Positions 1 to 46,354 of a stretch of DNA of 64,000 nucleotides are shown in pieces. Each line of letters begins with the position of its first letter. The stretch's first letter is position 1. This DNA is from a virus. Its lineage: Duplodnaviria > Heunggongvirae > Uroviricota > Caudoviricetes. The DNA lies in the IMG/VR virus record IMGVR_UViG_3300028887_000082. One strand, given 5' to 3'. The notes under the pieces were generated by a model. That model did not search any database, had not been told where the DNA came from, and saw only the letters and a list, made by a program, of their open reading frames with translations. A program made the translations under genes and the position numbers.

Positions 1-12
1 AAGTAATATTCT

Positions 13-94
13 GGGAGTGTCGCATAGTGGCAATTGCAAGGGTCTGTAACACCCTCGCCTTCGGGCTTCGGAGGTTCGAGTCCTCCCGCTCCCA
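13..94 (+). tRNA. tRNA-Tyr (anticodon GTA), type II
   Basis: Acceptor GGGAGTG/CGCTCCC (one G-U); anticodon stem AGGGT/ACCCT with loop CTGTAAC; long variable arm; T-arm GGAGG-TTCGAGT-CCTCC; discriminator A. Confidence 0.75.
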
Positions 95-110
95 CAAAAA
101 CTTTAAGGTT

Positions 111-443
111 ATGAAAAAGACAGTTAAGTTTTTCAAACAGGATGACAAATGGTATGCAGACATTCCAAACCACACACTGGATGAAAATGAGATGGTGATG
201 GGTTCTGATATTATGTTGGAGATGTTTGCGAACGGTGCGAAGGAACTCACATTAACATTGTCTGATGATGATATGTCTGATGCATTCATAACATTGAGAA
301 GAAAGGAACATGATGAGGATGGTGCCTGGTACACAGTGTTCGGGACAGACTTTGAGGATGTTTGGATATGTAATGTGACACATGATGTCTTCGGTGAACA
401 CCCTGAATGTATCTACATCAGTAAGATAACTCAACATAAATAA
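111..443 (+). CDS. hypothetical protein (110 aa) embedded in tRNA array
   Basis: ORF 27..443 trimmed to the first ATG (MKKTVKFF...), because its upstream part overlaps tRNA-Tyr. Confidence 0.45.
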   Translation: MKKTVKFFKQDDKWYADIPNHTLDENEMVMGSDIMLEMFANGAKELTLTLSDDDMSDAFITLRRKEHDEDGAWYTVFGTDFEDVWICNVTHDVFGEHPECIYISKITQHK

Positions 444-530
444 GGGGATGTGCTGAAACTGGCAGCCAGGCCAGACTTAGGATCTGGTGTCCGGAAGGAC
501 GTATGGGTTCGAGTCCCTTCATCCCTACCA
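444..530 (+). tRNA. tRNA-Leu (anticodon TAG), type II, CCA encoded
   Basis: Acceptor GGGGATG/CATCCCT; anticodon stem CCAGA/TCTGG with loop CTTAGGA; long variable arm; T-arm TGGGTTCGAGTCCC; ends ACCA. Confidence 0.75.
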
Positions 531-607
531 CAGTCTTTCGGGACTTTAAAGAGTTGTAGAAATACAATCCATCGAGGTCAGTCCAGAACCAGTTAATCTG
601 GACATTT

Positions 608-680
608 GCGGCAGTGGCGGAATGGTAGACGCGCCACTTTGAGGGGGTGGTCCGGGCAACCGGGTATGGGTTCGAGTCCC
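608..680 (+). tRNA. tRNA-Leu (anticodon GAG; Ser/TGA reading not excluded), type II
   Basis: Acceptor GCGGCAG/CTGCCGC perfect 7 bp; Leu-type D-loop AATGGTAGA; anticodon stem CCACT/GGTGG with loop TTGAGGG; long variable arm TCCGGGCAACCGGGT; T-arm ATGGG-TTCGAGT-CCCAT. Confidence 0.65.
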
Positions 681-791
681 ATCTGCCGCACAATAAAAAG
701 GGTGGGCCAATCGGAATAAGGCAGGGTAAGTCTCCGGTTCTTCTTTGATGAGGGTGCACCAGTAATCAAAGTTTCTTAAATTACCCAACCC

Positions 792-865
792 GGGCAAGTA
801 ACTCAGTTGGTTAGAGTACCACTCTGATACAGTGGTGGTCGTAGGTTCGAGTCCTACCTTGCCCA
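792..865 (+). tRNA. tRNA-Ile (anticodon GAT)
   Basis: Acceptor GGGCAAG/CTTGCCC perfect; D-arm ACTCAGTTGGTTAGAGT; anticodon stem CCACT/AGTGG with loop CTGATAC; T-arm GTAGG-TTCGAGT-CCTAC. Confidence 0.85.
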
Positions 866-873
866 CAACAAAT

Positions 874-948
874 GCCCCTATCATACTAATAGGTTTAGGT
901 GGCCACCCTCTCAAGGTGGAGATACGGGTTCGAATCCCGTTGGGGGTA
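874..948 (+). tRNA. tRNA-like, possibly tRNA-Glu (anticodon CTC); weak D-arm, possible pseudogene
   Basis: Acceptor GCCCCTA/TGGGGGT pairs only with two G-U pairs; anticodon stem CCACC/GGTGG with loop CTCTCAA; canonical T-arm ACGGG-TTCGAAT-CCCGT; no convincing D-stem. Confidence 0.45.
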
Positions 949-967
949 CAAAAAATATTCAAAAATA

Positions 968-999
968 TTTGGTAGTTTCAAATTTTTTTGTTATCTTTG
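968..999 (+). promoter_or_regulatory. Bacteroidota-type promoter (-33 TTTGG, 20 nt, -7 TATCTTTG)
   Basis: AATATTTGGTAGT ... TATCTTTG; same architecture recurs before many genes in this window. Confidence 0.5.
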
Positions 1000-1169
1000 T
1001 ACTGTAAGTTCATTGAAATATTGATGCACATATAGGAACAACAAGATGGGGTACCTATAAGTCTCACATAAGGATTCTAGATTGAGGGGGTGTGAGAGAA
1101 GGGTACAAATAATGTTAAAGAGGATTCCCGACCCTTAATAGGAGGAGAAAAGCGCTCTCTCCGATCCTC

Positions 1170-1204
1170 TGACAACAGTGACTACGGAAATCTGTTGTGT
1201 TCTT
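1170..1204 (+). ncRNA. hairpin with conserved loop TGACTACGGAAAT (stem ACAACAG/CTGTTGT)
   Basis: 7-bp stem around a 13-nt loop, 4 nt upstream of tRNA-Leu(CAA); the same loop recurs at 1426-1448 with a different stem. Confidence 0.45.
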
Positions 1205-1207
1205 TAT

Positions 1208-1280
1208 GCCCAGGTGGGGGAATGGTAGACCCAGCTGTCTCAAAAGCAGCCGACCATCCGGTCATGTGAGTTCGAGTCTC
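1208..1280 (+). tRNA. tRNA-Leu (anticodon CAA), type II
   Basis: Acceptor GCCCAGG/CCTGGGC perfect; D-loop AATGGTAGA; anticodon stem GCTGT/GCAGC with loop CTCAAAA; long variable arm; T-arm GTGAG-TTCGAGT-CTCAC. Confidence 0.85.
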
Positions 1281-1425
1281 ACCCTGGGCACTTTGATGAA
1301 AATCCTAGGTGGGTGGTATCTATAGCAGACTCCTTTAAAATGGGGAAGGAGGAAAGATACCGAATACTGGACAGGTGGTTTCGTCTAGCATCCTGGTGAG
1401 GGGGAATGTCCTCACAAGACCACTT

Positions 1426-1462
1426 GAGAATGGTGACTACGGAATTCCATTTGTTTTCATTT
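1426..1462 (+). ncRNA. hairpin with conserved loop TGACTACGGAATT (stem AATGG/CCATT) plus T-rich tail
   Basis: Second copy of the TGACTACGGAA loop with a compensatory stem; followed by TTGTTTTCATTTTTTAT, so terminator-like. Confidence 0.4.
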
Positions 1463-1837
1463 TTTATGGTGGGGTTATCAAACTTAACCACCCGCATCCT
1501 TGAAGAGAATGTGTTGCCGAGCCGTGTCAAGTTTATCTTGTATCCGGAGGAGTGAAACTTCCAAGTTGACAGGTTATTGCACTCGCCTGTCAATTATTAC
1601 TGAACCCACCAGTAAGACTGTTAAGCAGTATATCAGTATGGTACATGGGAGTTGTGCATGAGCTGGCTGAAGAGTAGTTTCCGGATATGGTGTTGAAACC
1701 CGGGGAAAATGAAAAGTAAGTCAATAGCAATAGGGAACCGGTGGAGTTACTGTGACTTTGTAATTTTGTCCATTACAGAACCGGGGAAATAATGGAACAC
1801 CAATGTGGCTAAAATGGTAGGGATTCACAAAAATCAG

Positions 1838-1898
1838 TGAAGGTGGCCACACACCTGGACAATCACTGATTACGAAAATTATTTTTTATAAATATATA
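1838..1898 (+). terminator. stem-loop (ATCAGTGA...TCACTGAT) followed by T-rich run, upstream of tRNA-Glu
   Basis: 8-bp stem with a structured 21-nt loop, then TACGAAAATTATTTTTTAT. Confidence 0.4.
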
Positions 1899-1904
1899 AC
1901 AGTT

Positions 1905-1976
1905 GGCGCCCTCGTCTATCGGTTAGGACACGAGATTTTCATTCTCGGAAGAGGGGTTCGATTCCCCTGGGCGCTA
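1905..1976 (+). tRNA. tRNA-Glu (anticodon TTC)
   Basis: Acceptor GGCGCCC/GGGCGCT (G-U at 1:72); D-stem GTCT/GGAC; anticodon stem CGAGA/TCTCG with loop TTTTCAT; T-arm AGGGG-TTCGATT-CCCCT. Confidence 0.8.
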
Positions 1977-2037
1977 CTAATCAACCGGAAGGTTGTTTAC
2001 TATCCAGTCAATAATTCATGAATAAACCTGGGTAGAG

Positions 2038-2111
2038 GTCTGATAGCTCAGATGGTGAGAGTACCACACTGATACTGTGGAGGTCACAAGTTCAAGTCTT
2101 GTTCAGACTAC
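2038..2111 (+). tRNA. tRNA-Ile (anticodon GAT), second copy with imperfect acceptor stem (possible pseudogene)
   Basis: D-arm TAGCTCAGATGGTGAGAGT; anticodon stem CCACA/TGTGG with loop CTGATAC; T-arm ACAAG-TTCAAGT-CTTGT; acceptor GTCCTGA/TCAGACT has two mismatches. Confidence 0.5.
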
Positions 2112-2225
2112 GAAACATATCGCGGGGGAGTGAAACGGATAAGAACATCCCACAAGTTTGTTCAAAGATCATTACAGGCTCATAACCTGTAGATACTGGC
2201 TTCGACTGCCAGACCCGCAACAAAG

Positions 2226-2379
2226 ACCTTTATGAAGCAAGTGGAATTCGGTATTTCAACCTATGCAAGTTATCAGAGTCAGTGTACAATGAATCTGAAG
2301 AACAGTATAAAAGTCAATACTGATAAGTCTTCTGTGGAAATTCAAGCCCAGTTGTCCTGGTTCGAGCCCAGGTAAAGGT
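2226..2379 (+). ncRNA. elongated tRNA-like gene (154 nt) with ~75-nt internal insertion
   Basis: Perfect 7-bp acceptor ACCTTTA...TAAAGGT flanks a canonical T-arm CCTGG-TTCGAGC-CCAGG; TG follows the 5' acceptor strand as in neighbouring tRNAs; internal part not foldable by eye. Confidence 0.4.
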
Positions 2380-2555
2380 CCATATACAACAAAAAACAAC
2401 AAACATGGCAACAGTTAAAAACACATCATTCTCAAGAAGAGAAGTCAAGCATAAGAAACGCCCTGGAATCATTTCCAAGTGTAAGTCTTCAAAGAACAAG
2501 ACATCAAAACACTATGTGAAACCATACAGAGGTCAGGGCAGACCATAAAAACCTT

Positions 2556-2637
2556 CGGGGTGTAACCGGTAGTTGGTTTCCGACCAGTTTTGGGAACTGG
2601 GCCGCAAGGCGCGCAGGTTCGAGTCCTGTTACCCCGA
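2556..2637 (+). tRNA. tRNA-like, probable tRNA-Pro (anticodon TGG) with unusually long variable arm
   Basis: Acceptor CGGGGTG/TACCCCG; anticodon stem CCAGT/ACTGG with loop TTTGGGA (G37); 12-nt variable hairpin GCCGCAAGGCGC; T-arm GCAGG-TTCGAGT-CCTGT; D-stem only 3 bp. Confidence 0.5.
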
Positions 2638-2640
2638 CAA

Positions 2641-2822
2641 CACCTGGTGGACAAATGGTAAAGTCGCCCTATTGGGTAGGGAGGTGTGTAATAGAAGTTT
2701 TCCGGCAGTGAGGAGTAATGGAGTCGCGATCCACCGAAGGCACGGGAACGAGAATAAGCACAGGCCTGGATGTATTCGCGATGCTGAAGGGTGAATGGGG
2801 GTTCAATTCCCCTTCGAGGTGA
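2641..2822 (+). ncRNA. elongated tRNA-like gene (182 nt) with ~110-nt insertion after the anticodon region
   Basis: 5' part CACCTGG-TG-GAC-AATGGTAAA-GTC with stem-loop CCCT-ATTGGGT-AGGG (TGG anticodon-like); 3' part GGGGG-TTCAATT-CCCCT then CGAGGTG, which pairs 6/7 with the 5' acceptor; insert contains two copies of TCGCGAT. Confidence 0.4.
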
Positions 2823-3129
2823 CAAAGATTGTTGTGGTGTTGCAGAACTTTAAAAGGAACAACACAGGTGTAGAGGGAAACTTTAATGGGTAATTTTTTT
2901 TACCAGCTAACCTTCAGAGACCTCACCAAGGATGATGCTTCATCATGGAGGGCACTCCAAGATGACAAAAAGATAGTTACAGTGAGAGTCTTATTGAGAA
3001 CTGTTCGACCCAGGAGGAGTGATGTTTTAGAGCATGTTTGACTGTACGGGGATAAACGGTGGCGACCGGTGAGTTTTTCTGGGCACTTCTCAGAACAAAA
3101 ACAAAGAAAATTAACAAAACAGTCTTTAA

Positions 3130-3204
3130 GGGTGTTTAGCGCAGCTGGTTCAGAGCATCTCGTTTACACCGAGAAGGTCGGGGGTTCGAATCCCTCATCA
3201 CCCA
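3130..3204 (+). tRNA. tRNA-Val (anticodon TAC)
   Basis: Acceptor GGGTGTT/ATCACCC (one mismatch); D-arm TAGCGCAGCTGGTTCAGAGC; anticodon stem TCTCG/CGAGA with loop TTTACAC; T-arm GGGGG-TTCGAAT-CCCTC. Confidence 0.75.
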
Positions 3205-3342
3205 CAAAGAGATACTTGAAGAAGCTACGGGTGTAAGATACTAGTAAAGATTACACATAGGGGCCTACCATATTGTAGTTTATGTGTTCTAAAACATCAA
3301 GTAACAACATAGAGGACTTCGAATTAATCTATGGCTCTTAAT

Positions 3343-3414
3343 GCCGATGTAGCTCAGTGGCAGAGCAGGGGTTTTGTAAACCTCAGGTCGAGATCTCGGT
3401 ATTCTCCATCGGCT
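3343..3414 (+). tRNA. tRNA-Thr (anticodon TGT) with non-canonical T-loop
   Basis: Acceptor GCCGATG/CATCGGC perfect; D-arm TAGCTCAGTGGCAGAGC; anticodon stem GGGGT/ACCTC with loop TTTGTAA; T-arm GAGAT-CTCGGTA-TTCTC (4 bp, unusual loop). Confidence 0.65.
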
Positions 3415-3472
3415 CAAAATTATTGAACTTGAACTTTCATAAATACTTTATAAGGATTATAAAAGTTCAACT

Positions 3473-4066
3473 ATGACAAACTGGGAAGATAGAAAAGATA
3501 CCCTGGTAGATTTGATACAGGTTCAGAAATTACCATATGAACAGATTGGTAGAATGTTCAATTGTTCAGGTAATAACATCAAGAAAGTTGCAAAAAAACT
3601 TGGTATTGAATTAGTCCAGAAAAGAAAGATAAATGAAAGTGAAACTTTCAATAAAGGAAAAGGTAATAAGGGTATCTGTTTAAACTGTGGATGTGAATAT
3701 AACATTTACAGGTCTTCAAAAGGAAAGTTCTGCTCAAACAAATGTCAGGGAGAGTATGAATATAAAGAGTTCATTGAAAAATGGAAAAAGGGTGAAGAAT
3801 CTGGATTGACAGGAGAATATGGAATTTCTCGTCACATAAGGAGATACCTTTTTAATAAGTACAAATGTAGTTGTCAAATTTGTGGATGGAGTGAAGTAAA
3901 TCCATTTACTGGTAATGTTCCTTTGGAAATTCATCATATAGATGGCAATTACGTAAATAATAAAGAGGAAAATTTACAACTCCTTTGTCCAAATCATCAC
4001 TCACTGACTGAAACCTTTAAGAACCATAATAAAAATGGTAGAAAAGGTAGAAGGAAGTACAATTGA
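3473..4066 (+). CDS. HNH homing-type endonuclease (free-standing, inside tRNA array)
   Basis: C-terminal HNH motif ...EIHHIDGNYVNNKEENLQLLCPNHH; Cys-rich Zn-binding stretches CLNCGCEY...CSNKCQ and CQICGW; N-terminal HTH-like segment. Confidence 0.85.
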   Translation: MTNWEDRKDTLVDLIQVQKLPYEQIGRMFNCSGNNIKKVAKKLGIELVQKRKINESETFNKGKGNKGICLNCGCEYNIYRSSKGKFCSNKCQGEYEYKEFIEKWKKGEESGLTGEYGISRHIRRYLFNKYKCSCQICGWSEVNPFTGNVPLEIHHIDGNYVNNKEENLQLLCPNHHSLTETFKNHNKNGRKGRRKYN

Positions 4067-4072
4067 TAATTT

Positions 4073-4227
4073 GCCCCAGTGGCTCAATGGTAGAGCAACG
4101 CACTTGTATAGATGGCGAAATTCCATTTTAAAAACTATGACTACATCAAAAGGCTCATAGGAGTGAGGGTTCGATTCCCTTATGTAGTCCAATGCGTAGG
4201 TTGCTGGTTCGATTCCGGCCTGGGGCT
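4073..4227 (+). tRNA. interrupted tRNA gene: 5' half + ~90-nt insertion in anticodon loop + 3' half; insertion contains a nested T-arm/acceptor minihelix
   Basis: Outer acceptor GCCCCAG...CTGGGGC perfect 7 bp; D-arm TGGCTCAATGGTAGAGC; anticodon stem ACGCA (4098-4102) pairs with TGCGT (4193-4197); T-arm GCTGG-TTCGATT-CCGGC; insert 4103-4192 begins CTTGTAT (TGT-like); nested ACTACAT...GAGGG-TTCGATT-CCCTT-ATGTAGT-CCA at 4140-4191. Confidence 0.6.
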
Positions 4228-4285
4228 CAAGAAAAAGGATTTTGGCCTGTTAGTTAAAATCCATATAAAATAAAAAGTCAAATTT

Positions 4286-4906
4286 ATGTCAAAATTAATG
4301 AAACCAGAAGAGAGGGATCAGCAGATCAAGGATTTGATGATTACCATTAGAAGGAACACACAGGGTTCCAAATGTATTGAGATCTTTGAAAATCTTTTGA
4401 ATGAGGTTGAGGACAAAGAGTTTGTTGATACTGTTATAGCAGACACTCACAAATTCATCTCTGAGTTCTCAAGACTATGTAAGGATGTGGACAATATGAA
4501 GAATCTGGATTATATCTCCAGAATCCTCACACATGAGTTCATACTTCCCCACAAGTATTTCCGTAAGTCACAGAATATGGCGAAGGTATACTTGCTGATG
4601 TATGACAGACTTGTGAAGATATATTCACATCCTGTATATGATGTTGAGAAAGGTATCATCCTTTCCAATGTCAACTTCCTGGGTACAATTCACCACAAGG
4701 AAGACCTCACTGCAAATGATGTGATTGCAGTGTTCAAGTATTTCGGTGACCTTTCAGGACTTTCCGTTGACCAGGTAAAGGAAAAGAAGGAAGAAGCCAG
4801 GATGGTCATCTTACTCTACAATTATCTGCCTGCCATAGTGAAGGCACTTATTCAGACCAAGAGGAGAAGCTTGAATCTTGACAAGAACTCCAAGAAGTTT
4901 GAATAA
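4286..4906 (+). CDS. hypothetical protein (206 aa)
   Basis: Long + strand ORF between the tRNA block and tRNA-Ala. Confidence 0.6.
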   Translation: MSKLMKPEERDQQIKDLMITIRRNTQGSKCIEIFENLLNEVEDKEFVDTVIADTHKFISEFSRLCKDVDNMKNLDYISRILTHEFILPHKYFRKSQNMAKVYLLMYDRLVKIYSHPVYDVEKGIILSNVNFLGTIHHKEDLTANDVIAVFKYFGDLSGLSVDQVKEKKEEARMVILLYNYLPAIVKALIQTKRRSLNLDKNSKKFE

Positions 4907-4934
4907 ATAACAGAACTAACAGGCTGGAATCTTT

Positions 4935-5001
4935 GGGGGATTAGCTCAGCTGACTAGAGCACCTGATTTGCACTCAGGAGGTCATGGGTTTGAATCCCAT
5001 A
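4935..5001 (+). tRNA. tRNA-Ala (anticodon TGC), CCA encoded
   Basis: Acceptor GGGGGAT/ATCCTCC (G-U at 4:69); D-arm TAGCTCAGCTGACTAGAGC; anticodon stem CCTGA/TCAGG with loop TTTGCAC; T-arm ATGGG-TTTGAAT-CCCAT; ends ACCA. Confidence 0.8.
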
Positions 5002-5043
5002 TCCTCCACCAAAAAAGGACAATTATTTGCTGGGATACTGTGA

Positions 5044-6132
5044 GTGTCCCTTTTTTATTCAATGAAAAGAATATTTATATTCATTGTATTTTTATTCCTT
5101 GGTATGACATCACTGCAATCGCAGAATGTCGTATCATCTACTGTTGAGTTTTTATTCAACACAGATGAGTTTGTACAGAATGAGAAATATGACAATTTCA
5201 TAAACACAATTGTACCTTATATCAACAGCAACAAGGATAATATTGAGAGTATCCTGTTGGTGGGATCTGCATCCCCAGAAGGAAACAAGGAATGGAATGA
5301 CTACCTTGCTGTCACCAGGGCCGAAAAGGTACACTCATATTTTATGGACAGTATTCCAAGACAGAAGGTCAATGTCATCAATGACTATGACCTATTCCTG
5401 GAAAAGACAGGTTATGATGAGAAGAACTGGAAAAGGTTGAGGGCAACTTATATTGAAATCCAACTCAAAAAAGCACCTGAAACCATAACCCTGTTTGACA
5501 CCATATATATAAAGGAGATGGATACAATCTACCAGTGCTGTGGCACTGATACTGTATATATCAAACAGGAACCGGAAAGGATACCTCTTCTTGCAGTAAA
5601 GACAAATCTCCTTTCTGATGTTCTCATCACCCCCAGTATTCAAGCTGAACTCTACACACATCTCTGGGGACTCTCACTTGAATTTGACTACACATTCCCC
5701 TGGTATCACAATGATGATGTATATTGGTATTACCAGATCCTCAATGGTACTGTTGGAATAAGGAAGTACTTGAACAATGAGTACTATGGTCATTACTTTG
5801 GAATATATGGAAACACTTTCACATATGACATCTGTTTTGATGCAGATAATGGATACCAGGGTGAGGGTAATGGAATCAGTATAGGTTATGGATATGTGTT
5901 CAGGAGTAAGAAACATCCCAAACTGAAGTTTGAACCTTATGTCAGGTTGGGTTATCTGTATTCAAGATTTGACACATATCATGCCTCTAATCCCTGGGAT
6001 GGAAAGTATTACTACAACTGGCATAAGAAGGCCAGTGAATTTACTCCCAGGAGACTTGAACTTAATTATTTCGGACCTACTGCAATAGGTTTCAATATAA
6101 CATACGACTTGATATGGTTAAGAAAGTATTAG
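5044..6132 (+). CDS. secreted outer-membrane beta-barrel-like protein (DUF3575-like, OmpA-like segment)
   Basis: Signal peptide MKRIFIFIVFLFLGMTSLQSQ; segment AVKTNLLSDVLITPSIQAE resembles the DUF3575 core found beside Bacteroidales fimbrillin genes; GSASPEGNKEWNDYLAVTRAEKV is OmpA-C-like; aromatic C-terminus. Confidence 0.5.
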   Translation: MSLFYSMKRIFIFIVFLFLGMTSLQSQNVVSSTVEFLFNTDEFVQNEKYDNFINTIVPYINSNKDNIESILLVGSASPEGNKEWNDYLAVTRAEKVHSYFMDSIPRQKVNVINDYDLFLEKTGYDEKNWKRLRATYIEIQLKKAPETITLFDTIYIKEMDTIYQCCGTDTVYIKQEPERIPLLAVKTNLLSDVLITPSIQAELYTHLWGLSLEFDYTFPWYHNDDVYWYYQILNGTVGIRKYLNNEYYGHYFGIYGNTFTYDICFDADNGYQGEGNGISIGYGYVFRSKKHPKLKFEPYVRLGYLYSRFDTYHASNPWDGKYYYNWHKKASEFTPRRLELNYFGPTAIGFNITYDLIWLRKY

Positions 6133-7178
6133 TTTTTATTGTTTCACTGTTGTTAGTTTTTTCTGCTTGTGATAAGAAACCTCTATATCTTCAGGGTGAT
6201 GCAGCAGTCACCGTTAATGTACAGACTCAGGTATCAATAGAAGCATATTGGAATACAAACATTCAAAGTACATTAAGATATGACTGGGACACCACTTTGT
6301 ATGGACCAATAGGTTATTCAAAGGTGGATAATGTTGACCTTGTGATATTCAACAACAAAAAGATAATAGAAAGGAAGACATTAAACACAGGAAAACGTCA
6401 ACTGATAGATATTGAATTAGGTAATACATATGACTTTTTGATTTTCAATAAAACAGAAAACACCGAGGATTTTTATATAGACAACAAGTTTTTAATAAGT
6501 ACAACCACTCCTGGTACAAAGTCTGTTGTTGAAGATGTATATTATGATTTGACAAACCAACCTGGTGAGATATTTTGTGTTTATCAAAAGAATGTATTTT
6601 TGTCAGATGATTTGTCTCAATATAAAGAGGTATATGATCATGACAAGTTAATATATGTGTATGACATCAATACTGAATTAAAACCGGTATCATACATCTA
6701 CCTTATACAGTTTATTATTGTAAAGGATGACAGTTTGGATATTGATGTGAAAGGTATTCCGGAATACAGAATAACCGGTGTGAGTTCCTCAAAGAATCTT
6801 TTCACCAACACTCCTGTATATACCGGAAAGAAAGAAATCAGGTCAACTGACATCAAACCCCCACAGGTGGTAGAGGATAGTTTGATTTTTGCGTCAAAAT
6901 TCACTATATTGAACTTGGGTAGTGATGATGAACAAAGTTCATGGGAGACTCCTGATAATTATATATACAACTGTTTGATAAATATTGAGACTGAGAAATC
7001 AGGAAGTTTTAATGGAATTGTCAATATTACAGACCAACTTAAAAAACAACCACAAGGAGGAATAATAACAATAAGGATTAACAGTTCAACATTGAGAAGG
7101 AAGGATCAGGACAGTGGTGGAATTAATGTTGATGTTGAACCCTGGCAAGAGGAAGAGGTTCAAGAAATAGAAATATAA
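6114..7178 (+). CDS. lipoprotein (354 aa), pilus-accessory-like
   Basis: Lipobox MVKKVLVFIVSLLLVFSAC-DKK; beta-rich N/T/D-rich composition; sits between the DUF3575-like and fimbrillin-like genes. Confidence 0.55.
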   Translation: MVKKVLVFIVSLLLVFSACDKKPLYLQGDAAVTVNVQTQVSIEAYWNTNIQSTLRYDWDTTLYGPIGYSKVDNVDLVIFNNKKIIERKTLNTGKRQLIDIELGNTYDFLIFNKTENTEDFYIDNKFLISTTTPGTKSVVEDVYYDLTNQPGEIFCVYQKNVFLSDDLSQYKEVYDHDKLIYVYDINTELKPVSYIYLIQFIIVKDDSLDIDVKGIPEYRITGVSSSKNLFTNTPVYTGKKEIRSTDIKPPQVVEDSLIFASKFTILNLGSDDEQSSWETPDNYIYNCLINIETEKSGSFNGIVNITDQLKKQPQGGIITIRINSSTLRRKDQDSGGINVDVEPWQEEEVQEIEI

Positions 7179-7220
7179 TACATAAATAATACATAAATAA
7201 TAATAAAAAACTTAATTGAA

Positions 7221-8405
7221 ATGAAAAAGATTTTATTCACATTATTAACCATATTAATGGTAATCGTATCATGTGCAAAAATAGATATTGTACCTGATAC
7301 ATATAATTCTCGTAATGAGAATGTGGAGATTGTTTTCGGTGCCCATGCAGGCAAGGGTTTGATGACAAGAGCAGTCATTAATGGTGATACTTTACCAGAT
7401 GGATCAGAGTTTGGTGTTTATTCATACTATGCAGCAGGAACCAATCATTTGTTGATTGACAATGGTCACTATGCAGTAAACAAGGATACAGCCAGGGCTA
7501 CTGGTGGTGAAAAGTATTATTGGCCAAAGTCAGATAACAATAATGTCACAAAGGATAGTATTGACTTCTTGGCAATTTATCCATATAGTACAACTGATTA
7601 TTCTCGTTCAGGAAACACTGTTACTATTACACTTAATGCATCAACAACAGATAGTACTTCTACAAAGGATGTTCTTTATGCAATAGCTGATAATCAGTAT
7701 CATCAGACAGTTGGAACTTATAACAATACTACACCAAATAAGTATTATGTTCCATTGACATTTAAGCATGCATTGACATTGGTTGAGTTCCAGGGTAAAC
7801 ATGCTGGAGCAACAAATAACATTGATACTATAACTGTTACAGAGATTGCTTTCTTGAATAGTGATGGTACTGCATATGCTATTTACACTGGTGGTTCAAT
7901 ATCATTTGATATATCTAAAATAACTGCAACCACAAAACCTGATACAACTTTTACAGGTGGTACAACAAACAATACTTTAAACTTTGCTAATAATTGTGGT
8001 CTTACATCATCAAAATACACAACAATATCAAAGGCAATAATGGTTCCTCAGGCTGTACCTAATAAGGTTCGCATAACTTATAATATAACCATTAAGAATA
8101 CTAATGGTGAAAAAGTGGAGTTCACTGGTCGTCAGGTAGTAAAAGAAATTAATACCGGTAGTGATATGACAAATAATACTCCTAGAAATTATGTATCTAA
8201 CTGGTATTCTGGTAAGCATTATGTTTACAGGTATTATATAACTGCTGAAGCTATTGAGTTTACTGTAACAGTTGATGACTGGGATCTTCCTGATGGTTGG
8301 CAGATTTGGGATCATGATGTAGCATCATATGTTGACCGTTTTTTCGAGAAGGCTTCAACAATCATGGGGAACTGTATAGAGGTGCAGAACCACATAATGG
8401 CGTAA
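7221..8405 (+). CDS. fimbrillin-like (type V pilus Mfa/FimA-like) lipoprotein; reading continues in -1 frame to 8980 across a T6 tract
   Basis: Lipobox MKKILFTLLTILMVIVSC-AK; candidate Arg maturation site LMTR|A near residue 50; T/S/N-rich beta-rich body; the -1 frame is open from 8336 to 8980 with no start codon before 8669. Confidence 0.5.
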   Translation: MKKILFTLLTILMVIVSCAKIDIVPDTYNSRNENVEIVFGAHAGKGLMTRAVINGDTLPDGSEFGVYSYYAAGTNHLLIDNGHYAVNKDTARATGGEKYYWPKSDNNNVTKDSIDFLAIYPYSTTDYSRSGNTVTITLNASTTDSTSTKDVLYAIADNQYHQTVGTYNNTTPNKYYVPLTFKHALTLVEFQGKHAGATNNIDTITVTEIAFLNSDGTAYAIYTGGSISFDISKITATTKPDTTFTGGTTNNTLNFANNCGLTSSKYTTISKAIMVPQAVPNKVRITYNITIKNTNGEKVEFTGRQVVKEINTGSDMTNNTPRNYVSNWYSGKHYVYRYYITAEAIEFTVTVDDWDLPDGWQIWDHDVASYVDRFFEKASTIMGNCIEVQNHIMA

Positions 8406-8668
8406 AATTTTCAAATAGCGTAAAGGGCCTTGATTTTAGTAGAGGAGATTACATTGAAGCCAAAATAGATTTACGCAATTTAAATAGAGCAAAGCAGAAC
8501 ATCATCTCTATTGGAGAAGATATAGCCAACTGGACCCCAAGTGGTAGTGGAGAAAAATATAATCTTCATATTTATTATCCCAATGATGTTAACGATTTAC
8601 GAATAAGATTTTCTGCATTAAGCAGTAATAGAATTAAGATTGGTAATACCACTTATAATCGTAGAACA

Positions 8669-8980
8669 ATGGGAATTGTTGATTCAGATATATTTTATTT
8701 TGATGAGGATACTAATTATGAAGTTACTATAAAATTTGACAAAGATGGATTTTATGTCAATGACCACTTGATAACCAGAGATGATTTTGAATCTGTTGAA
8801 CCAAGTAAAATACCTGAGTGGCCAACAAATCCAAGTGGTACTGGAACAGATGTTTGGACATATCCAGATTATTTCATGTTACATTTCCAAAATAAAGTAA
8901 GTGTTAGTTTTGGAAGCATGGAAGGTAGTACACGAAGTTACGCTTATTATGAATACATAAAATATCATCATGTACTATAA
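8669..8980 (+). CDS. C-terminal segment of the frameshifted fimbrillin-like gene (listed as separate 103-aa ORF)
   Basis: In-frame, stop-free extension from 8336 upstream of this ATG; probably not independently translated. Confidence 0.35.
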   Translation: MGIVDSDIFYFDEDTNYEVTIKFDKDGFYVNDHLITRDDFESVEPSKIPEWPTNPSGTGTDVWTYPDYFMLHFQNKVSVSFGSMEGSTRSYAYYEYIKYHHVL

Positions 8981-8981
8981 A

Positions 8982-9008
8982 AGAGAGGATAAAACATCCT
9001 CTCTTTTG
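8982..9008 (+). terminator. rho-independent terminator (AGAGAGGAT-AAAAC-ATCCTCTCT-TTTG)
   Basis: Perfect 9-bp stem with T-run directly after the stop at 8980. Confidence 0.7.
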
Positions 9009-9031
9009 TACATAAATATTTTATAAAAACT

Positions 9032-9268
9032 TTGTTATATTTAATATACAAAATAAGTTATATGAGTATGAATGATTTGAAATACTTTGGTAAGGTGGTT
9101 GCCTTGTTTCTTGCAGGATTCATTGCCATCATCACAGCATCAGGTGTTTGGAATGGTGTAGCAGAAGGATGTGTTGATTCCTTCTATGGTTGGGTTGCTG
9201 GTATCAACTTCATCATCCAGGGATTTGGTATCTATTCACTTTATAAGAAATTATTCCCAAAAGAATAA
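9032..9268 (+). CDS. small membrane protein (78 aa)
   Basis: Two predicted TM helices (VVALFLAGFIAIITASGVW; AGINFIIQGFGIYSLY). Confidence 0.45.
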   Translation: MLYLIYKISYMSMNDLKYFGKVVALFLAGFIAIITASGVWNGVAEGCVDSFYGWVAGINFIIQGFGIYSLYKKLFPKE

Positions 9269-9465
9269 TACAATATGCTCTCTGGTGAGTTTATGGGTGT
9301 CTTGATTAACTTCATATATGACCCATAAATAAAAGTGGTATAAGTGCAGTATATTCCAGGAGTACATACTGCAACGGTTCATAGTTCAGCCGGGAAACGT
9401 ACGAAACTATGCGTGGGATCCATAACAGACGGAGAAGCATACGGTCACTTGAAAGTCTGTTTTTC

Positions 9466-9553
9466 GGAGGGTTGCCTGAGTGGACGAAAGGGGCTGCCTG
9501 CTAAGCAGTTGAACCCTTTATGGGTTCCAGAGGTTCGAATCCTCTACCCTCCG
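9466..9553 (+). tRNA. tRNA-Ser (anticodon GCT), type II
   Basis: Acceptor GGAGGGT/ACCCTCC perfect; Ser-type D-arm CCTGAGTGGACGAAAGG; anticodon stem GCTGC/GCAGT with loop CTGCTAA; long variable arm; T-arm AGAGG-TTCGAAT-CCTCT; ORF 9344..9649 over it is spurious. Confidence 0.85.
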
Positions 9554-9671
9554 CACATAAATACTATGAATATACAATGTTTTTGGTCCAGAGGATTCCG
9601 GAACCTTTTGAGTGTTAATAAAAGACACGAATGGATTAGAGACAGTTAAATACAAAATAATTTAATAAAGT

Positions 9672-15069: not shown

Positions 15070-15705
15070 TTGAAGAAAGAGTCAGGAAAACCTGACTCTT
15101 TTGTTATTTTTATGTTGTCAAAAAATGTATTTATTATGAGCAGACCAAACAAATGTATCAAGGATGAGAATGGAAAGGATCAGTGGATCTCCCGCAGTAC
15201 TGTGGTAATACCTATTGTATTCAAGATAGACAATGAAACCGGAGACATCTACACTATTGTGGAACAGAGAGGTAATGCAGTAACCCATCCTGGTGAATGG
15301 TGTTGTCCCTGTGGATTTATAGACTGGGATGAGACTCTTGAAGAGGCCTGTCAGAGGGAAGTGAGGGAAGAGACCGGAATCATCCTCAATCAGGAAAACA
15401 TCCATTTTATGTATGTCTATAGTGACCCCAAGAGTACCAATCAGACTGTTGACTTGTGGTATATGTGCTGGACAGATGCAGACATAGACACATCAAAGAT
15501 TGAAACAAAGGAAGAGGTTATGGATGTAAGGTGGCTGAAGGTCGGTAAGTTATACCGGGGTAGTACATTGTTCATCTTCAACACATCAATCAAAAACTGT
15601 TATGGTACCTGGGCATTTAAGACACATGCCGGCAGAGTCATAGAGATGTTGAAAACAATTGTCAAAGATGCCAAGAATGGTAGAGTGGTTGAAGTAAATG
15701 ATTAA
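15070..15705 (+). CDS. Nudix hydrolase (true start probably a downstream Met, e.g. ~15112/15136)
   Basis: Nudix box [23 protein letters not shown] (Gx5Ex7REVxEExGI). Confidence 0.75.
15076..15104 (+). terminator. terminator hairpin (AGAGTCAGG-AAAA-CCTGACTCT-TTTG) inside the 5' end of the next ORF call
   Basis: Perfect 9-bp stem plus T-run; implies the Nudix gene starts at a downstream Met. Confidence 0.7.
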
Positions 15706-20870: not shown

Positions 20871-21056
20871 ATGATGACAAAGGAATTAGAAGAGTGGTTG
20901 AGGTATCACTGGAGAAGGGATAACCACCCCAAATATCAGAGATATTTTGAAGAGTGGATGGCAAATCTTCTGCCAACACAGATAGAGTATTTCAAGAAAC
21001 AGATGTACAATGAGAAGAATGGAATCCTGGGTAAGACAATGACAAATAAGAAATGA
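20871..21056 (+). CDS. hypothetical small protein (61 aa)
   Basis: + strand ORF. Confidence 0.4.
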   Translation: MMTKELEEWLRYHWRRDNHPKYQRYFEEWMANLLPTQIEYFKKQMYNEKNGILGKTMTNKK

Positions 21057-21057
21057 T

Positions 21058-21267
21058 ATGAATAACAGTATAAAAGTGATAATAAGTCCTCTTGTCGGAA
21101 CAAAGAATTACAGTATGCATGAAGGTAAGGAATTGGTTCTACCTTGTGTACCTCAAATTGGATCAGTCATTGAAATTGGCAGTGACAACCTTGAAGTCAA
21201 AAGAGTGTTTTATATATATAAAGAAGGTGAATATAAAGTTTATTTAAGTGTAACTGACTGGAATTAA
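21058..21267 (+). CDS. hypothetical small protein (69 aa)
   Basis: + strand ORF, 1-nt spacing. Confidence 0.4.
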   Translation: MNNSIKVIISPLVGTKNYSMHEGKELVLPCVPQIGSVIEIGSDNLEVKRVFYIYKEGEYKVYLSVTDWN

Positions 21268-32350: not shown

Positions 32351-32593
32351 ATGATGTACATACTTGCAGGAAGAAGTTATCAATTATATGGCATCTTCTC
32401 CACAAAGGAGAAACTCAATGAGGCCATCGCAGTCGTAAGGAAACATGACCCTTACACACATCTCTATTGGCAGGAGGTAGAGGTTGACAACTTTGACACA
32501 ACCATTGCCTCATTCTTTACAATGCATCCGGAAAAACTTATAGAAATAGAAAAAGACACAGATTATGAAATTTCTGATACAGACAGTAAATAA
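32351..32593 (+). CDS. hypothetical small protein (80 aa)
   Basis: + strand ORF. Confidence 0.4.
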   Translation: MMYILAGRSYQLYGIFSTKEKLNEAIAVVRKHDPYTHLYWQEVEVDNFDTTIASFFTMHPEKLIEIEKDTDYEISDTDSK

Positions 32594-33290
32594 ACAGATT
32601 ACATATGACTTCATTTTTGAGTTGACCATATGTAAGGAATACTTTGATTGGATTGGAAGGGATTTCAAACTCAAGAAACATGAAGGTCTGAACTTTGATG
32701 ATATAAAGAACCCGGACCAGTATGTCCCTGTTGGTTCTGTTGAGTTTGTATCAGAGTATTTGAGGAAGTTTTACCCCCAGGCAGAGAAAGCACTCATACC
32801 TATCAATGTTCCAGAACAGTTGTTCCCATTTGCCGGCAGAACCATTGCCAACATAACCAAACCGGAGGATATGAATGGGTTTGATTGTCTTGTGTACAGA
32901 AAGTCTTTGGATACAATAAAGGATCCCAACAATGGATGGTGGGGATTTCCTGAATATGAATGGTGTAAGGGTTACCAGGTTTCCACTCCAATTGATAACA
33001 TTATTTCTGAATGGAGAGTATTTGTATTCAATGATGTAATTGTGGATGCAAAAAACTACAGGGGTGACTTTTTCGTATGTCCGGATGAAGAAACAGTTTC
33101 CAATATGGTGAAAGCATATAAGAATTCACCCAGAGCATATACGCTTGATGTAGCAGTCACAAGTGAAGGTAAAACTGTAGTGATTGAGTGTCACCGGTTC
33201 TTTTCATGTGGTCTGTATGGATTTTGTGAGCATGATAAATATCCTGTAATGCTTTCACAGGAATGGTTTGAAATGAAAAATATGAGATAA
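32565..33290 (+). CDS. ATP-grasp fold enzyme (amidoligase-like)
   Basis: EWRVFVFNDVIVDAKNY and LDVAVTSEGKTVVIECHRF resemble ATP-grasp motifs (ExxRxF; DxxxxxxGxxxVIExN). Confidence 0.45.
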   Translation: MKFLIQTVNKQITYDFIFELTICKEYFDWIGRDFKLKKHEGLNFDDIKNPDQYVPVGSVEFVSEYLRKFYPQAEKALIPINVPEQLFPFAGRTIANITKPEDMNGFDCLVYRKSLDTIKDPNNGWWGFPEYEWCKGYQVSTPIDNIISEWRVFVFNDVIVDAKNYRGDFFVCPDEETVSNMVKAYKNSPRAYTLDVAVTSEGKTVVIECHRFFSCGLYGFCEHDKYPVMLSQEWFEMKNMR

Positions 33291-33292
33291 TT

Positions 33293-33595
33293 ATGAACAC
33301 TAAAAAAAGAAATGTATTCTTTGATTTGTTTTACAAGAAATACAAATCCATTGATAAAATGAACTACATCAAAAATGTTATGGACTCTTGTGAGACAAAA
33401 GTACAATTGGATTCAGCGTATTCATGGGGAATTGAAATCATTTGGAAAACATGTAGTGCAATGAGAGAAATACTTGATAATGAATATGGTAGTATCTTTG
33501 CATTTCCTATTGAAGATAAAATAATGGATATGTGTAAAGAAATATCAGATGAAATTACCAATCATTATAATAACATACTAAAAAGAAAGATATAA
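33293..33595 (+). CDS. hypothetical protein (100 aa)
   Basis: + strand ORF. Confidence 0.4.
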   Translation: MNTKKRNVFFDLFYKKYKSIDKMNYIKNVMDSCETKVQLDSAYSWGIEIIWKTCSAMREILDNEYGSIFAFPIEDKIMDMCKEISDEITNHYNNILKRKI

Positions 33596-33604
33596 AAGAA
33601 TGAT

Positions 33605-33901
33605 ATGATAGGTATTTTTATTTTCCCGGCAAAACCAAACAAGGATTACCTGTTCTACAAAGAACCCAGAAAAGTTCTTGAAATGAGTGATGATGAAATC
33701 ATATCATCAAAAAATTCATCAAGGGGTATTTTCTATAACATACATTATGACAATGAATGGGAAGGACTCAGTGATGCAGAAATTGTTGATAAGTGGAATG
33801 AAAAAGCGATAAACCTCCAAATTCAGATTGGTAACAGAAAATCCGGACTTGGTTATACATCAGTAGATAAGACTAAATTTATTAGAATAATAAGGAAATG
33901 A
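33605..33901 (+). CDS. hypothetical protein (98 aa)
   Basis: + strand ORF. Confidence 0.4.
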   Translation: MIGIFIFPAKPNKDYLFYKEPRKVLEMSDDEIISSKNSSRGIFYNIHYDNEWEGLSDAEIVDKWNEKAINLQIQIGNRKSGLGYTSVDKTKFIRIIRK

Positions 33902-34575
33902 AACACTATGACAGTATTCCCAGACTCCAGGATGATGGAACACTGAAAGGAGAGATGGTCGCCGGGTACAACAAACTTGACGGTCAGAACTTCTGTGTCA
34001 CATATAATTGTAGAAAGAAAACCTGGGGACCTTATGGATCCAGGACTGTCACTGTTGATGAGAACTCTGAACAGTTTGGGGACACGGTTAGATTCTTCAA
34101 CAACTCCGGTTACAAGGAGATACTTGGAAATATCATCAAGGAGTATTCAGGTAAGGGAGATGTGTTCAATGGTGTTGAAGAAGTCACATTCTTCTTTGAG
34201 TGGTATGGGTGGAACTCATTCGCTGGCAAACACAAGGAAGGTGACAAGATGCACCTGGCACTCATTGATGTGTTCCTGAAGAAGAGAGGTTATATGGAAC
34301 CCAAATCATATGAGATGTGTTTCAGAAATTGCGGAATTGAACTTCCTGATCTCATATATTCCGGACCACTCAATGCAGACATTATAGAAAAGGTTCAGAA
34401 CAATGACTGGACAGACCCGGATTGTTGGAATTCCAAAGTACATGAGGGTGTTGTCTTCAAAAGAACAACACTCCTGAAAGGACAGAGGAGACCATCAGTC
34501 AAGGTGAAGACCAAATGGTGGTTGGACACTCTCCACTCACTTTATACAGAAGAGGAATGTAAGAAACTTGAGTGA
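33898..34575 (+). CDS. ATP-dependent RNA ligase-like nucleotidyltransferase (Rnl family)
   Basis: Motif I AGYNKLDGQN (KxDG, lysine adenylylation site); motif IV EGVVFK; motif V KVKTK; ~225 aa. Confidence 0.6.
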   Translation: MKHYDSIPRLQDDGTLKGEMVAGYNKLDGQNFCVTYNCRKKTWGPYGSRTVTVDENSEQFGDTVRFFNNSGYKEILGNIIKEYSGKGDVFNGVEEVTFFFEWYGWNSFAGKHKEGDKMHLALIDVFLKKRGYMEPKSYEMCFRNCGIELPDLIYSGPLNADIIEKVQNNDWTDPDCWNSKVHEGVVFKRTTLLKGQRRPSVKVKTKWWLDTLHSLYTEEECKKLE

Positions 34576-35428
34576 TATGGAAGGATACAGTATAAATCCA
34601 TTAGACTATCTTAACCAGGCACTTAATTATGCACATCGTTGGAAACTTGATGTCAATCTTGAAAATCCGACCACAATACAGGACAAACTGTTCTGGTTGA
34701 ATTTCTATGACCAGGACATCAGAAAGTCCAGATGTGCAGATAAACTGTTAGTCAGGGAGTATGCAAAAGAAAAACTTGGTTTTGACATCAACATACCAAT
34801 ATTAAAGGTGTATGACAGTGTTGATGACATAAACCTGGATGAACTCCCAGATAAGTTTGTCATAAAGTGTAATCATGGAAGTTCAATGAACATTGTTGTC
34901 AAAGACAAGAGTTCATTTGACTTTGAAAAAGCAAAGGACAAACTCAGGAAATGGATGAGTATTGATTATGCACTATATAATCATTATGAGTTCCATTACC
35001 ATGACATACAACACAAGATTCTGATTGAGGAATACAAGGAAGATCTCAAGACCAATGAACTCAGGGATTACAAGTTCAGCTGTTTCAATGGTGTTCCCAA
35101 AGTTATGTGTGCAATCACAAACCTGTTCAAACACAATGAGACAACCAACTATTATGATATGGATTTCAATCCATTGACTGATATGTCCCTGATATATCAT
35201 CCTGCAAACTACAATGTCCAGATTGATAAACCCAAAGGGTTTGAAAAGATGATAGAGTATGCCACAAAACTCTCCCAGGACTTTAAGTATGTCAGGGTAG
35301 ATTTCTTCAGTATCAATGGTGATGTGTATCTGAGTGAGATGACATTCACACCACATGCCATAATCTGGTTGAGATTCAATAACCCCAAATATGACCTTGA
35401 ACTGGGTAATATGCTTAATATAAAGTAA
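34568..35428 (+). CDS. ATP-grasp enzyme (TupA-like)
   Basis: KFVIKCNHGSS...; ILIEEYKED; YVRVDFFSINGDVYLSEMTFTP. Confidence 0.5.
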   Translation: MSDMEGYSINPLDYLNQALNYAHRWKLDVNLENPTTIQDKLFWLNFYDQDIRKSRCADKLLVREYAKEKLGFDINIPILKVYDSVDDINLDELPDKFVIKCNHGSSMNIVVKDKSSFDFEKAKDKLRKWMSIDYALYNHYEFHYHDIQHKILIEEYKEDLKTNELRDYKFSCFNGVPKVMCAITNLFKHNETTNYYDMDFNPLTDMSLIYHPANYNVQIDKPKGFEKMIEYATKLSQDFKYVRVDFFSINGDVYLSEMTFTPHAIIWLRFNNPKYDLELGNMLNIK

Positions 35429-35429
35429 T

Positions 35430-35672
35430 ATGAATACAAGTTTCATTTATAAGGTGATATCTGAATCAGAAAGGTGGCAGGTAAGACGCAAGAGAAAGAT
35501 CGAGAGGATGAAATTTCTGATGAAAGTTCTTGAAGACAGAAACCTTAACCTCCCTGAAAGATTTTATGGTATGCTGGCAAGGTGGGAGTCAGAATATAGA
35601 AGAGAATGTGAGGAATATCAGCAACTACTTAACATAACCAAGAATGAAAAGAAAGAAGAAAGAATACAGTAA
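35430..35672 (+). CDS. hypothetical protein (80 aa)
   Basis: + strand ORF. Confidence 0.4.
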   Translation: MNTSFIYKVISESERWQVRRKRKIERMKFLMKVLEDRNLNLPERFYGMLARWESEYRRECEEYQQLLNITKNEKKEERIQ

Positions 35673-35913
35673 CATCTGTGATATGAATGGGGAACTCATC
35701 CCATATGGTGTCCCTATTGACTTCACATGGTGGGCATACTATGGGACAGAAGTTGAACTCCACCTGGTTGCGAAGATACGAAAGCGAAAATCCGGTGACA
35801 TCTTTGAGTTCATAAAGGATGAACATGGAAGAGATTGTTTCTTCACTCACAGACTGACATCACTCAATTGGGAACCGGCAGATTTGGAAATATTAAATGA
35901 AAATGAGTTATGA
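35644..35913 (+). CDS. hypothetical protein (89 aa)
   Basis: + strand ORF. Confidence 0.4.
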   Translation: MKRKKKEYSNICDMNGELIPYGVPIDFTWWAYYGTEVELHLVAKIRKRKSGDIFEFIKDEHGRDCFFTHRLTSLNWEPADLEILNENEL

Positions 35914-36705: not shown

Positions 36706-36726
36706 ATTTCGCCATTTTTTTTTTGT
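36697..36726 (+). terminator. rho-independent terminator (GGCGAA-ATAAAT-TTCGCC-TTTTTTTTTT)
   Basis: Perfect 6-bp GC stem plus T10, overlapping the gene's stop. Confidence 0.75.
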
Positions 36727-36752
36727 TATTTCAAAAAAATATATTATCTTTG
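36722..36752 (+). promoter_or_regulatory. Bacteroidota-type promoter (TTTG, 19 nt, TATCTTTG)
   Basis: TTTTGTTATTTCAAAAAAATATATTATCTTTGTAATAG upstream of 36775. Confidence 0.55.
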
Positions 36753-46352: not shown

Positions 46353-46354
46353 TA

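Follow-up and report, generated by a model that had tools for sequence, protein, structure and literature searches.

Small RNAs that resemble tRNAs but do not decode are already known from phage tRNA clusters. The species 1 and species 2 stable RNAs of phage T4 (rnaC and rnaD) are non-tRNA RNAs located in the T4 tRNA cluster, which are co-transcribed with the cluster, matured by tRNA-processing enzymes, and dispensable. Like these 2 RNAs, mascRNA and the plant mitochondrial t-elements are processed by tRNA enzymes, and a minihelix composed of an acceptor stem and a T-arm suffices for RNase P, RNase Z, and the CCA-adding enzyme. In mascRNA/MALAT1, in the tRNA-miRNA-encoded RNAs (TMERs) of murine gammaherpesvirus 68 (MHV68), and in the plant mitochondrial t-elements (PMC1920247), a non-decoding tRNA-like fold recruits RNase P or RNase Z to set RNA ends. 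The tRNA introns of the Lak megaphages have been called "enigmatic"; they are present or absent between strains, some are predicted to encode a tRNA (one of them "may encode a tRNA"), and the Lak Thr intron was reported to hold a possible tRNA (Devoto et al. 2019, PMC6784885). Here, we describe a further variant of such RNAs, a tRNA-like element on the + strand of a 64-kb stretch of a very large phage (IMG/VR record IMGVR_UViG_3300028887_000082), and we refer to this whole stretch as the window. Coordinates given without a locus name are those of the window, and L001–L050 denote the related or comparison loci that were fetched.

The element is best drawn as positions 2225–2382, with a length of 158 nt. 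What it retains of a tRNA is the "top half", in which an acceptor-type stem of 8 bp is stacked on a canonical T-arm of 5 bp and accompanied by a GG-containing D-loop-like strand; its anticodon arm is replaced by a predicted hairpin of approximately 76 nt with an invariant tip, plus a variable linker. The 5′ strand of the stem, GACCTTTA (2225–2232), is perfectly complementary to the 3′ strand, TAAAGGTC (2373–2380), which is followed by CA at the end of the element (2373–2382 for the strand and CA together). The T-arm CCTGG-TTCGAGC-CCAGG (2356–2372), which has a G53-C61-type closing pair and a 7-nt loop of the TTCRANN type, abuts the 3′ strand of the stem. The original prediction had described a perfect acceptor pair, an abutting canonical T-arm, and a TG following the 5′ strand, all of which are present in the sequence; the acceptor pair was, however, given as 7 bp (ACCTTTA/TAAAGGT), and G2225 and C2380 extend it to 8 bp. 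The register of this stem is ambiguous, because it can be numbered as G-1 followed by A1–A7 (G-1:C73) or as G1–T7 (G1:C72) followed by an extra A:T pair.

The insert between the 5′ strand of the stem and the T-arm is 123 nt long, rather than the approximately 75 nt of extra sequence estimated earlier. Its first part is the D-loop-like strand TGAAGCAAGTGGAATTC (2233–2249), which carries A14/R15/G18G19/A21-type residues and has at most a weak 3-bp GAA/TTC stem. The long predicted hairpin (2248–2323) occupies the place of the anticodon arm; it is closed by an 8-bp stem (2248–2255/2316–2323) in both the minimum free energy fold and the alignment fold (RNAalifold), and its 24-nt tip has the sequence TCAGTGTACAATGAATCTGAAGAA (2279–2302). 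The inverted repeat CAGTAT (2303–2308)/ATACTG (2317–2322), which the original prediction had read as an internal hairpin (2303–2322), is present but is not the sole pairing of these bases; it is one of several competing pairings and is an alternative to the 2248–2255/2316–2323 stem. The variable linker (2324–2355) follows the hairpin; its CTTC (2329–2332) could pair with GAAG (2234–2237) in a D-stem-like manner, and it contains the motif CTGTGGA (2332–2338).

The element is a real, inherited feature. In 300 first-order Markov randomisations of the window, with both strands counted, 64 kb contained on average 0.39 perfect T-arm motifs and 0.017 T-arms with a 7-bp partner, and the latter value argues that the element is not a product of chance, as had been claimed from the sequence beforehand. 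Related contigs were fetched using the adjacent small 47-aa protein as an anchor, and 3 distinct full-length versions of the element were found, all at the same site: that of the window, that of L028/L032 (95% identity), and that of L038 (82% identity); the phages concerned are related to one another, measure ~350–415 kb, and have promoters of the Bacteroidota type. Homologous loci in related phages therefore exist; their absence had been named in advance as an outcome that would count against the element.

Comparison of the 3 versions revealed that variation is clustered. Only 3 of 81 alignment columns are variable in the stem, D-loop-like strand, T-arm, and tip, compared with 32 of 87 columns elsewhere (Fisher p about 7e-8, for regions chosen post hoc and with indel columns inflating the count). 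Both strands of the stem, the terminal CA, and the T-arm are invariant, the D-loop-like strand has a single substitution across the 3 homologues, and the 24-nt tip is the same in all of them while flanking stem positions vary. In L038, by contrast, 21 of the 41 alignment columns of the linker are different, and an additional hairpin of 10 nt immediately precedes the T-arm. The identity between the window and L038 is 82% for the element, compared with 88% for tRNA-Glu, 80% for the small open reading frame (ORF) of the 47-aa protein, and 73% for a tRNA-like gene with a CAT anticodon upstream of the element. The clustered variation, together with an overall divergence that matches that of neighbouring functional genes, argues that the tRNA-like parts are under constraint; judged from these alignments, the divergence pattern is not one of free decay. 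The interior is less clear. The long hairpin carries 5 one-sided wobble-compatible changes and 1 break, and the D-stem-like GAAG/CTTC pairing shows 1 A-U to U-A double change. The robust parts are the outer stem, the T-arm, and the tip hairpin only.

The sister genomes of the element-bearing phages carry truncated alleles at the same site. In L033, the first 25 nt are joined to the 3′ strand of the stem, and the GG of the D-loop-like strand is mutated; in L027, L029, L030, and L031, just a 14-nt hairpin, GACCTTTATAGGTC, is left. All these truncated alleles have an extra GAT upstream in common, which points to a single deletion lineage. Nothing was found at the site in the more distant relatives L001, L002, L034, L035, and L044–L047. 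The truncated alleles in sisters and the lack of any counterpart in more distant relatives indicate that the element is restricted to one subclade and is dispensable. Exact-pattern scans of IMG/VR with the 3′ end and the hairpin tip gave zero matches, a scan of JGI metagenomes gave 5 unrelated chance matches and no copy, and blastn against GenBank phages returned ordinary tRNA matches or none. Neither second copies nor distant relatives were detected by blastn and nhmmer in the window and approximately 50 fetched loci, where a weak match at 21052–21092 was dismissed because it spans the junction of 2 small ORFs. Further contigs reached through the small protein's homologues P0003, P0004, P0006, P0008, P0009, P0016, and P0018 contained no additional copies. 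A scan of GTDB genomes revealed a 31-nt near-copy of the 3′ end of the element (TGTCCTTGGTTCGAGCCCAGGTAAAGGCCA) in an intergenic region of a Flavobacteriaceae metagenome-assembled genome (CAVYHF010000006.1; L050 1841–1871). This near-copy has no 5′ stem partner nearby, approximately 0.27 exact 21-mer matches are expected in the scan, and it may be a chance match or a tRNA fragment.

As judged by its sequence, the element is no decoding tRNA. Default ARAGORN made no call at the element, and Rfam gave no match there, either at the gathering score or at E-values up to 10. The acceptor stem corresponds to that of a canonical tRNA (7 bp, 2226–2232/2373–2379, plus one extra G:C pair), with the 3′ strand starting directly after the end of the T-stem at 2372, and the T-arm is canonical in its 5-bp stem, G53-C61 pair, and TTCRANN loop. 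As regards the D-arm, the loop residues A14/G18G19/A21 are present (AAGTGGAA), the standard-register stem is unpaired, and the shifted 3-bp GAA/TTC stem loses one pair in L038. The element contains no correctly positioned anticodon arm (5-bp stem and 7-nt loop with U33 and purine 37), as the original prediction had observed.

Several traits recall tRNA-His. The motif CTGTGGA is the anticodon loop of tRNA-His in L002 and L033, and its TGTGG is kept in L038; the T-loop TTCGAGC is also the T-loop of the L001 tRNA-His; and G2225:C2380 could be the G-1:C73 pair of tRNA-His, or equally a G1:C72 pair accompanied by the extra A:T. Among 141 ordinary tRNAs from these loci, only 14 have a -1:73 closing pair, namely all 4 tRNA-His and 10 of the 137 others; such a pair is also present in the element and in 3 minihelices nested in tRNA inserts. 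The 8-bp stem closed by a G:C pair resembles that of tRNA-His and has the 8/5 geometry of bacterial tRNA-Sec; unlike in tRNA-His, the CCA of the element is not fully encoded (C-CA). The CTGTGGA motif and the G:C closing pair suggest that the element probably derives from, or mimics, tRNA-His. This idea has its limits: CTGTGGA has no conserved closing 5-bp stem, so that GUG does not lie in a closed anticodon stem-loop; local alignment of the 2 halves of the element did not discriminate between isotypes, the similarity to tRNA-His being no better than that to other tRNAs; and L033, which belongs to the element-bearing group, has a canonical tRNA-His (L033 1–57).

We tentatively propose, with a confidence somewhat short of even, that 2225–2382 is an accessory non-decoding tRNA-like RNA, which would be co-transcribed with the surrounding tRNA array and freed from its transcript through RNase P cleavage and 3′ processing. 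Among the possibilities raised in the original prediction, a tRNA-derived non-coding RNA fits best, since the ends and the tip are conserved and the ORF across the element is not. The element lies on the same strand as the array and 5 nt after the preceding tRNA-like gene, and it would be transcribed within the polycistronic array transcript. The candidate start of this transcript is the nearest upstream promoter match (TTTG...TAnnTTTG, 968–999, + strand); between this match and the element, there is no further promoter match and one weak + strand terminator-like site (1982–1995). Host RNase P would recognise the top half and cut at or next to G2225 on the 5′ side, and the tRNA 3′-end machinery would cut near C2380–A2382. 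These cuts would release a stable RNA of approximately 155 nt and create the 5′ end of the mRNA of the 47-aa protein. The likely payload of such an RNA is its invariant hairpin tip.

Compared with the known systems, the element is like T4 species 1 and 2 in being a small non-tRNA RNA inside a phage tRNA cluster, and differs from them in having no sequence relationship and in the host phylum and phage lineage. With mascRNA, the MHV68 TMERs, and the t-elements, which belong to eukaryotic or organellar systems, it has a non-decoding tRNA-like fold in common; in the phage, 22 nt separate this fold from the start codon of an mRNA further downstream. In genomes that lack the element, the small ORF is nonetheless immediately preceded by a tRNA or tRNA-like gene, which argues that the element is not needed for setting the end of that mRNA. 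The order of parts (acceptor stem, unpaired D-loop-like strand, long helix, T-arm, and acceptor) is also that of the tRNA-like domain of transfer-messenger RNA (tmRNA). A tmRNA was nevertheless rejected as a candidate: the element has 158 nt in contrast to about 350 nt, its 3:70 pair is C-G instead of G3:U70, it contains no ACCA end, tag reading frame with a stop codon, or pseudoknots, and neither ARAGORN nor Rfam gave a tmRNA match.

A number of points weigh against an accessory RNA of this kind. The transcription, RNA ends, and stability of the element are all inferred. Its function, if any, is dispensable, given the deletions in sister genomes and its absence from L001 and L002. L028 is a mosaic, its linker being like that of the window and the 5′ half of its hairpin like that of L038; it thus looks recombinant, and part of the observed invariance could stem from recent exchange and not from selection. 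Covariation among the 3 distinct homologues is not significant, since the observed score is attained in 160 of 500 shuffles, and the fold z-score of −2.27 is modest. L038 alone favours another internal fold (−46.8 kcal/mol versus −26.8 kcal/mol for the consensus), and a search of the 64-kb window for a complementary (antisense) target of the invariant tip gave none.

The 8-bp/5-bp architecture recurs in neighbouring tRNA genes, where it is nested in inserts. The tRNA-Thr(tgt) gene (4073–4228) encodes an otherwise perfect tRNA, the anticodon loop of which is interrupted by 83 nt; an uninterrupted allele is found in L029 (3869–3941), and an HNH endonuclease gene (3473–4066) ends 7 nt upstream. 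This interruption is of the kind described as "enigmatic" in the Lak megaphages. The tRNA-Thr insert ends in a minihelix (4139–4191; G-ACTACAT ... GAGGG-TTCGATT-CCCTT-ATGTAGT-C, then CA) with an 8-bp stem and a 5-bp T-arm, and the "stem + C + CA" ending is common to this minihelix and the element. The same architecture was found in the tRNA-Pro inserts of L034, L035, and L044, in the tRNA-Tyr insert of L033, and in the tRNA-Tyr intron of Lak A1. These modules sit at the 3′ end of anticodon-loop inserts (in Thr, Pro, and Tyr tRNAs in this group and in Tyr tRNAs in Lak phages), and the real inserts of these phages are located at 36/37 or 37/38. The interrupted genes with nested minihelices are tRNA-Pro(tgg) at L035 3153–3305, L034 ~3155–3307, and L044 1201–1355, and tRNA-Tyr(gta) at L033 1174–1346. 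Comparison of the tRNA-Pro genes of L035 and L044 shows co-varying exon stems and an almost identical insert; the mismatched exons of the L034 tRNA-Pro suggest a recombinant or an assembly chimera. A different conserved anticodon-loop insert of approximately 82 nt, without a T-arm, interrupts tRNA-Arg(tct) in L002 (5791–5951), L027 (4175–4333), and L038 (3029–3187), and the L038 gene adjoins an HNH gene.

The element likewise consists of an 8-bp stem and a 5-bp T-arm with a GG-bearing connecting strand, in its case as the outer frame. It resembles the Lak introns in its location, as both lie in tRNA clusters of very large Bacteroidota phages, in its minihelix with a GG strand, and in its strain-variable presence. 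It differs from Lak-type inserts in that their minihelix is nested in the insert of a complete tRNA and encloses 15–30 nt, whereas the element is free-standing and encloses 123 nt. No sequence similarity was detected between the element and the insert minihelices.

These inserts bear on whether the element could be a functional intron-containing tRNA (His or Leu) from which the insert is removed to decode, a possibility named in the original prediction that we now regard as very unlikely. Relaxed ARAGORN intron modes do call the element, insert-bearing tRNAs exist in neighbouring genes, and genes for an RNA ligase and a Thg1-like enzyme are present in the phage. However, the calls consist of 2 contradictory models, one for His(gtg), in which the insert measures 76 nt and lies at 30/31, and one for Leu(caa), in which it measures 82 nt and lies at 35/36 (ARAGORN numbering). 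These models require thresholds of 85–90% and have mismatched D and anticodon stems; both were rejected, as neither is conserved in L028 or L038, where the proposed stems worsen. The insert position 30/31 also differs from that of the real inserts, removal at 36/37 or 37/38 fails to restore a cloverleaf, and no single excision gives one. The clade offers no uninterrupted allele, as the alternative alleles are deletions without any tRNA, and it has a canonical tRNA-His. The remaining coding alternative, a 47-codon protein gene with coincidental tRNA-like ends, is hardly credible. An ATG-to-TAA ORF (2232–2375) does span the element exactly, but 47 open codons in one frame are not unusual at the base composition of the window, L028 and L038 both have a 1-nt indel that disrupts the ATG frame, and in L038 a 10-nt indel additionally shifts the C-terminus. 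The L028 and L038 records have no gene call over the element, apart from the first 43 nt being covered by a lone 123-aa call in L038 that spans tRNA-Glu and the CAT tRNA-like gene. These comparisons argue that the element is not protein-coding.

The deletions in sister genomes keep alive another possibility of the original prediction, namely that of a decaying tRNA paralogue, possibly an insertion-disrupted copy of tRNA-His, functionless and heading for deletion; this is the main rival reading, and we consider it possible though doubtful. It would account for the lack of a usable anticodon arm and the failure of canonical models, for the tRNA-His-like G:C closing pair and CTGTGGA, and for the reduction of the element from the 25-nt remnant of L033 through the 14-nt hairpin of L027, L029, L030, and L031 to nothing in L001 and L002, and a canonical tRNA-His exists elsewhere in the clade (that of L033). 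By contrast, the retained copies have near-invariant ends and tips and a linker diverged at about 50% of columns, which is not a pattern of neutral decay; the element diverges no faster than neighbouring functional genes, and it is no more similar to the tRNA-His of the clade than to other tRNAs. Alternatively, the element could be a small mobile or recombination-spread module, kin to inserts of the minihelix-bearing type, which became inserted into the loop of a hairpin, GACCT-TTAT-AGGTC, that was already there. Of the genomes with an identical small protein, P0001, some have the element and others lack it (L028 versus L027), the 8-bp/5-bp architecture and the "C+CA" ending are common to the element and the nested minihelices, tRNA inserts are present or absent between strains (window 4073–4228 versus L029 3869–3941, and likewise in Lak phages), and the element is mosaic. 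Such an origin is nonetheless unlikely: the L033 intermediate, with its first 25 nt and the extra upstream GAT that it has in common with the minimal alleles, fits stepwise deletion better than insertion; no second copy was found in the window or about 50 related loci, and none in IMG/VR, JGI metagenomes, or GenBank phages; and the flanks provide the stem of the element, in contrast to the nested minihelices, which bring their own.

The window also encodes a set of RNA-repair proteins, which includes an RNA ligase (33898–34575), an RlaP nucleotidyltransferase (44286–45605), and a Thg1-like 3′-5′ polymerase (46584–47429; Pfam 2.9e-26; PDB 4kgk 1e-32). This set (32565–37380 and 44286–48536, also 15070–15705) further comprises R2K ATP-grasp, TupA-like ATP-grasp, HAD_SAK_2, HD, and NUDIX proteins. 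These genes are context for the element, and their action on it is not implied. A more ambitious and quite improbable extension is that the element is a free-standing member of a family of 8-bp/5-bp top-half modules, which would recruit host RNase P and RNase Z at defined cuts, the phage RNA-repair enzymes then rejoining or repairing the ends. If true, this would amount to RNA excision or splicing by protein enzymes guided by tRNA mimicry, which to our knowledge is not known in bacteria or phages.

The element lies in a tRNA array at positions 1–9,600, where ARAGORN identified 12 tRNAs and Rfam one further tRNA; the array is syntenic with the arrays of the relatives, the closest of which are contigs of 345–416 kb, and nearly all genes of the window are on the + strand. 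The Bacteroidota-type promoter pattern TTTG-N17-21-TAnnTTTG occurs 11 times in the window compared with 1.9 times expected, and this enrichment points to a Bacteroidota host. The sample labels STEW19 and XIEF21 of several related ENA contigs suggest an origin from rumen or ruminant gut, a suggestion made purely from these labels. The conserved upstream neighbour of the element, the CAT tRNA-like gene (2121–2220, + strand), ends 5 nt before the element; it has the anticodon loop CTCATAA (CAT), a region of approximately 45 nt instead of the D-arm, and compensatory changes in the anticodon and T stems in L038, and it was missed by ARAGORN and Rfam. The conserved downstream neighbour is the gene of the 47-aa protein (2405–2548, + strand), which starts 22 nt after the element and is followed by tRNA-Pro 7 nt past its stop codon. 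This protein is highly basic and has the invariant C-terminus SKHYVKPYRGQGR; its gene in the window has tRNA or tRNA-like genes on both sides. In all, 27 homologue clusters and 24 IMG/VR loci were found, and the protein had no match in Pfam, NCBIfam, PHROG, or PDB. The arrangement of these genes is such that the mRNA of the protein could be released by tRNA processing.

Further unusual tRNA-like genes and conserved non-coding stretches occur in these arrays. The tRNA-Pro(tgg) gene at 2556–2638 has 83 nt, an atypical D-arm, and an extended variable region in the window and in L028, whereas L027-type relatives have a normal 76-nt gene. It is followed by an elongated tRNA-like gene of approximately 183 nt (2641–2823) with the D-arm GAC-AAATGGTAAA-GTC, which is widely conserved in the clade (L001 5133–5313, L002 5176–5357, L027–L033, L038, and L047 ~2740–2870). 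The loop at its anticodon position is not conserved (ATTGGGT, GAGCAAT, and TGAATGA), and this gene is therefore unlikely to decode. A 117-nt tRNA-like gene in L001 (3146–3262) and L047 (1162–1280) has an "anticodon" stem capped with a tetraloop (CCCAG-GAGG-CTGGG in L001) and, after it, a variable region of approximately 50 nt. The non-coding stretches 1000–1207, 1292–1466, and 1467–1900 between the tRNAs are conserved in L001, L002, L034, and L035, and no Rfam family matched them; conserved stretches end in a shared GTGACTACGGAA-type motif (1178–1189 and 1432–1443) just before tRNA-Leu(caa). In some relatives, the array contains a tRNA with a CTA anticodon, an amber suppressor (L034 4742–4815 and L046 3795–3868), which suggests that TAG is recoded in part of the phage group.

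By itself, the element would be an optional, lineage-restricted RNA of moderate individual importance. It indicates that megaphage tRNA clusters, which are usually reported as counts of tRNAs, would also hold RNAs that standard tools miss, and that such RNAs may keep just the part of a tRNA that is recognised by processing enzymes. The recurrent 8-bp/5-bp module would provide a testable handle on the "enigmatic introns" of Lak phages, through possible cutting by RNase P and RNase Z and possible finishing by the RNA ligase and Thg1-like enzymes of the phage.

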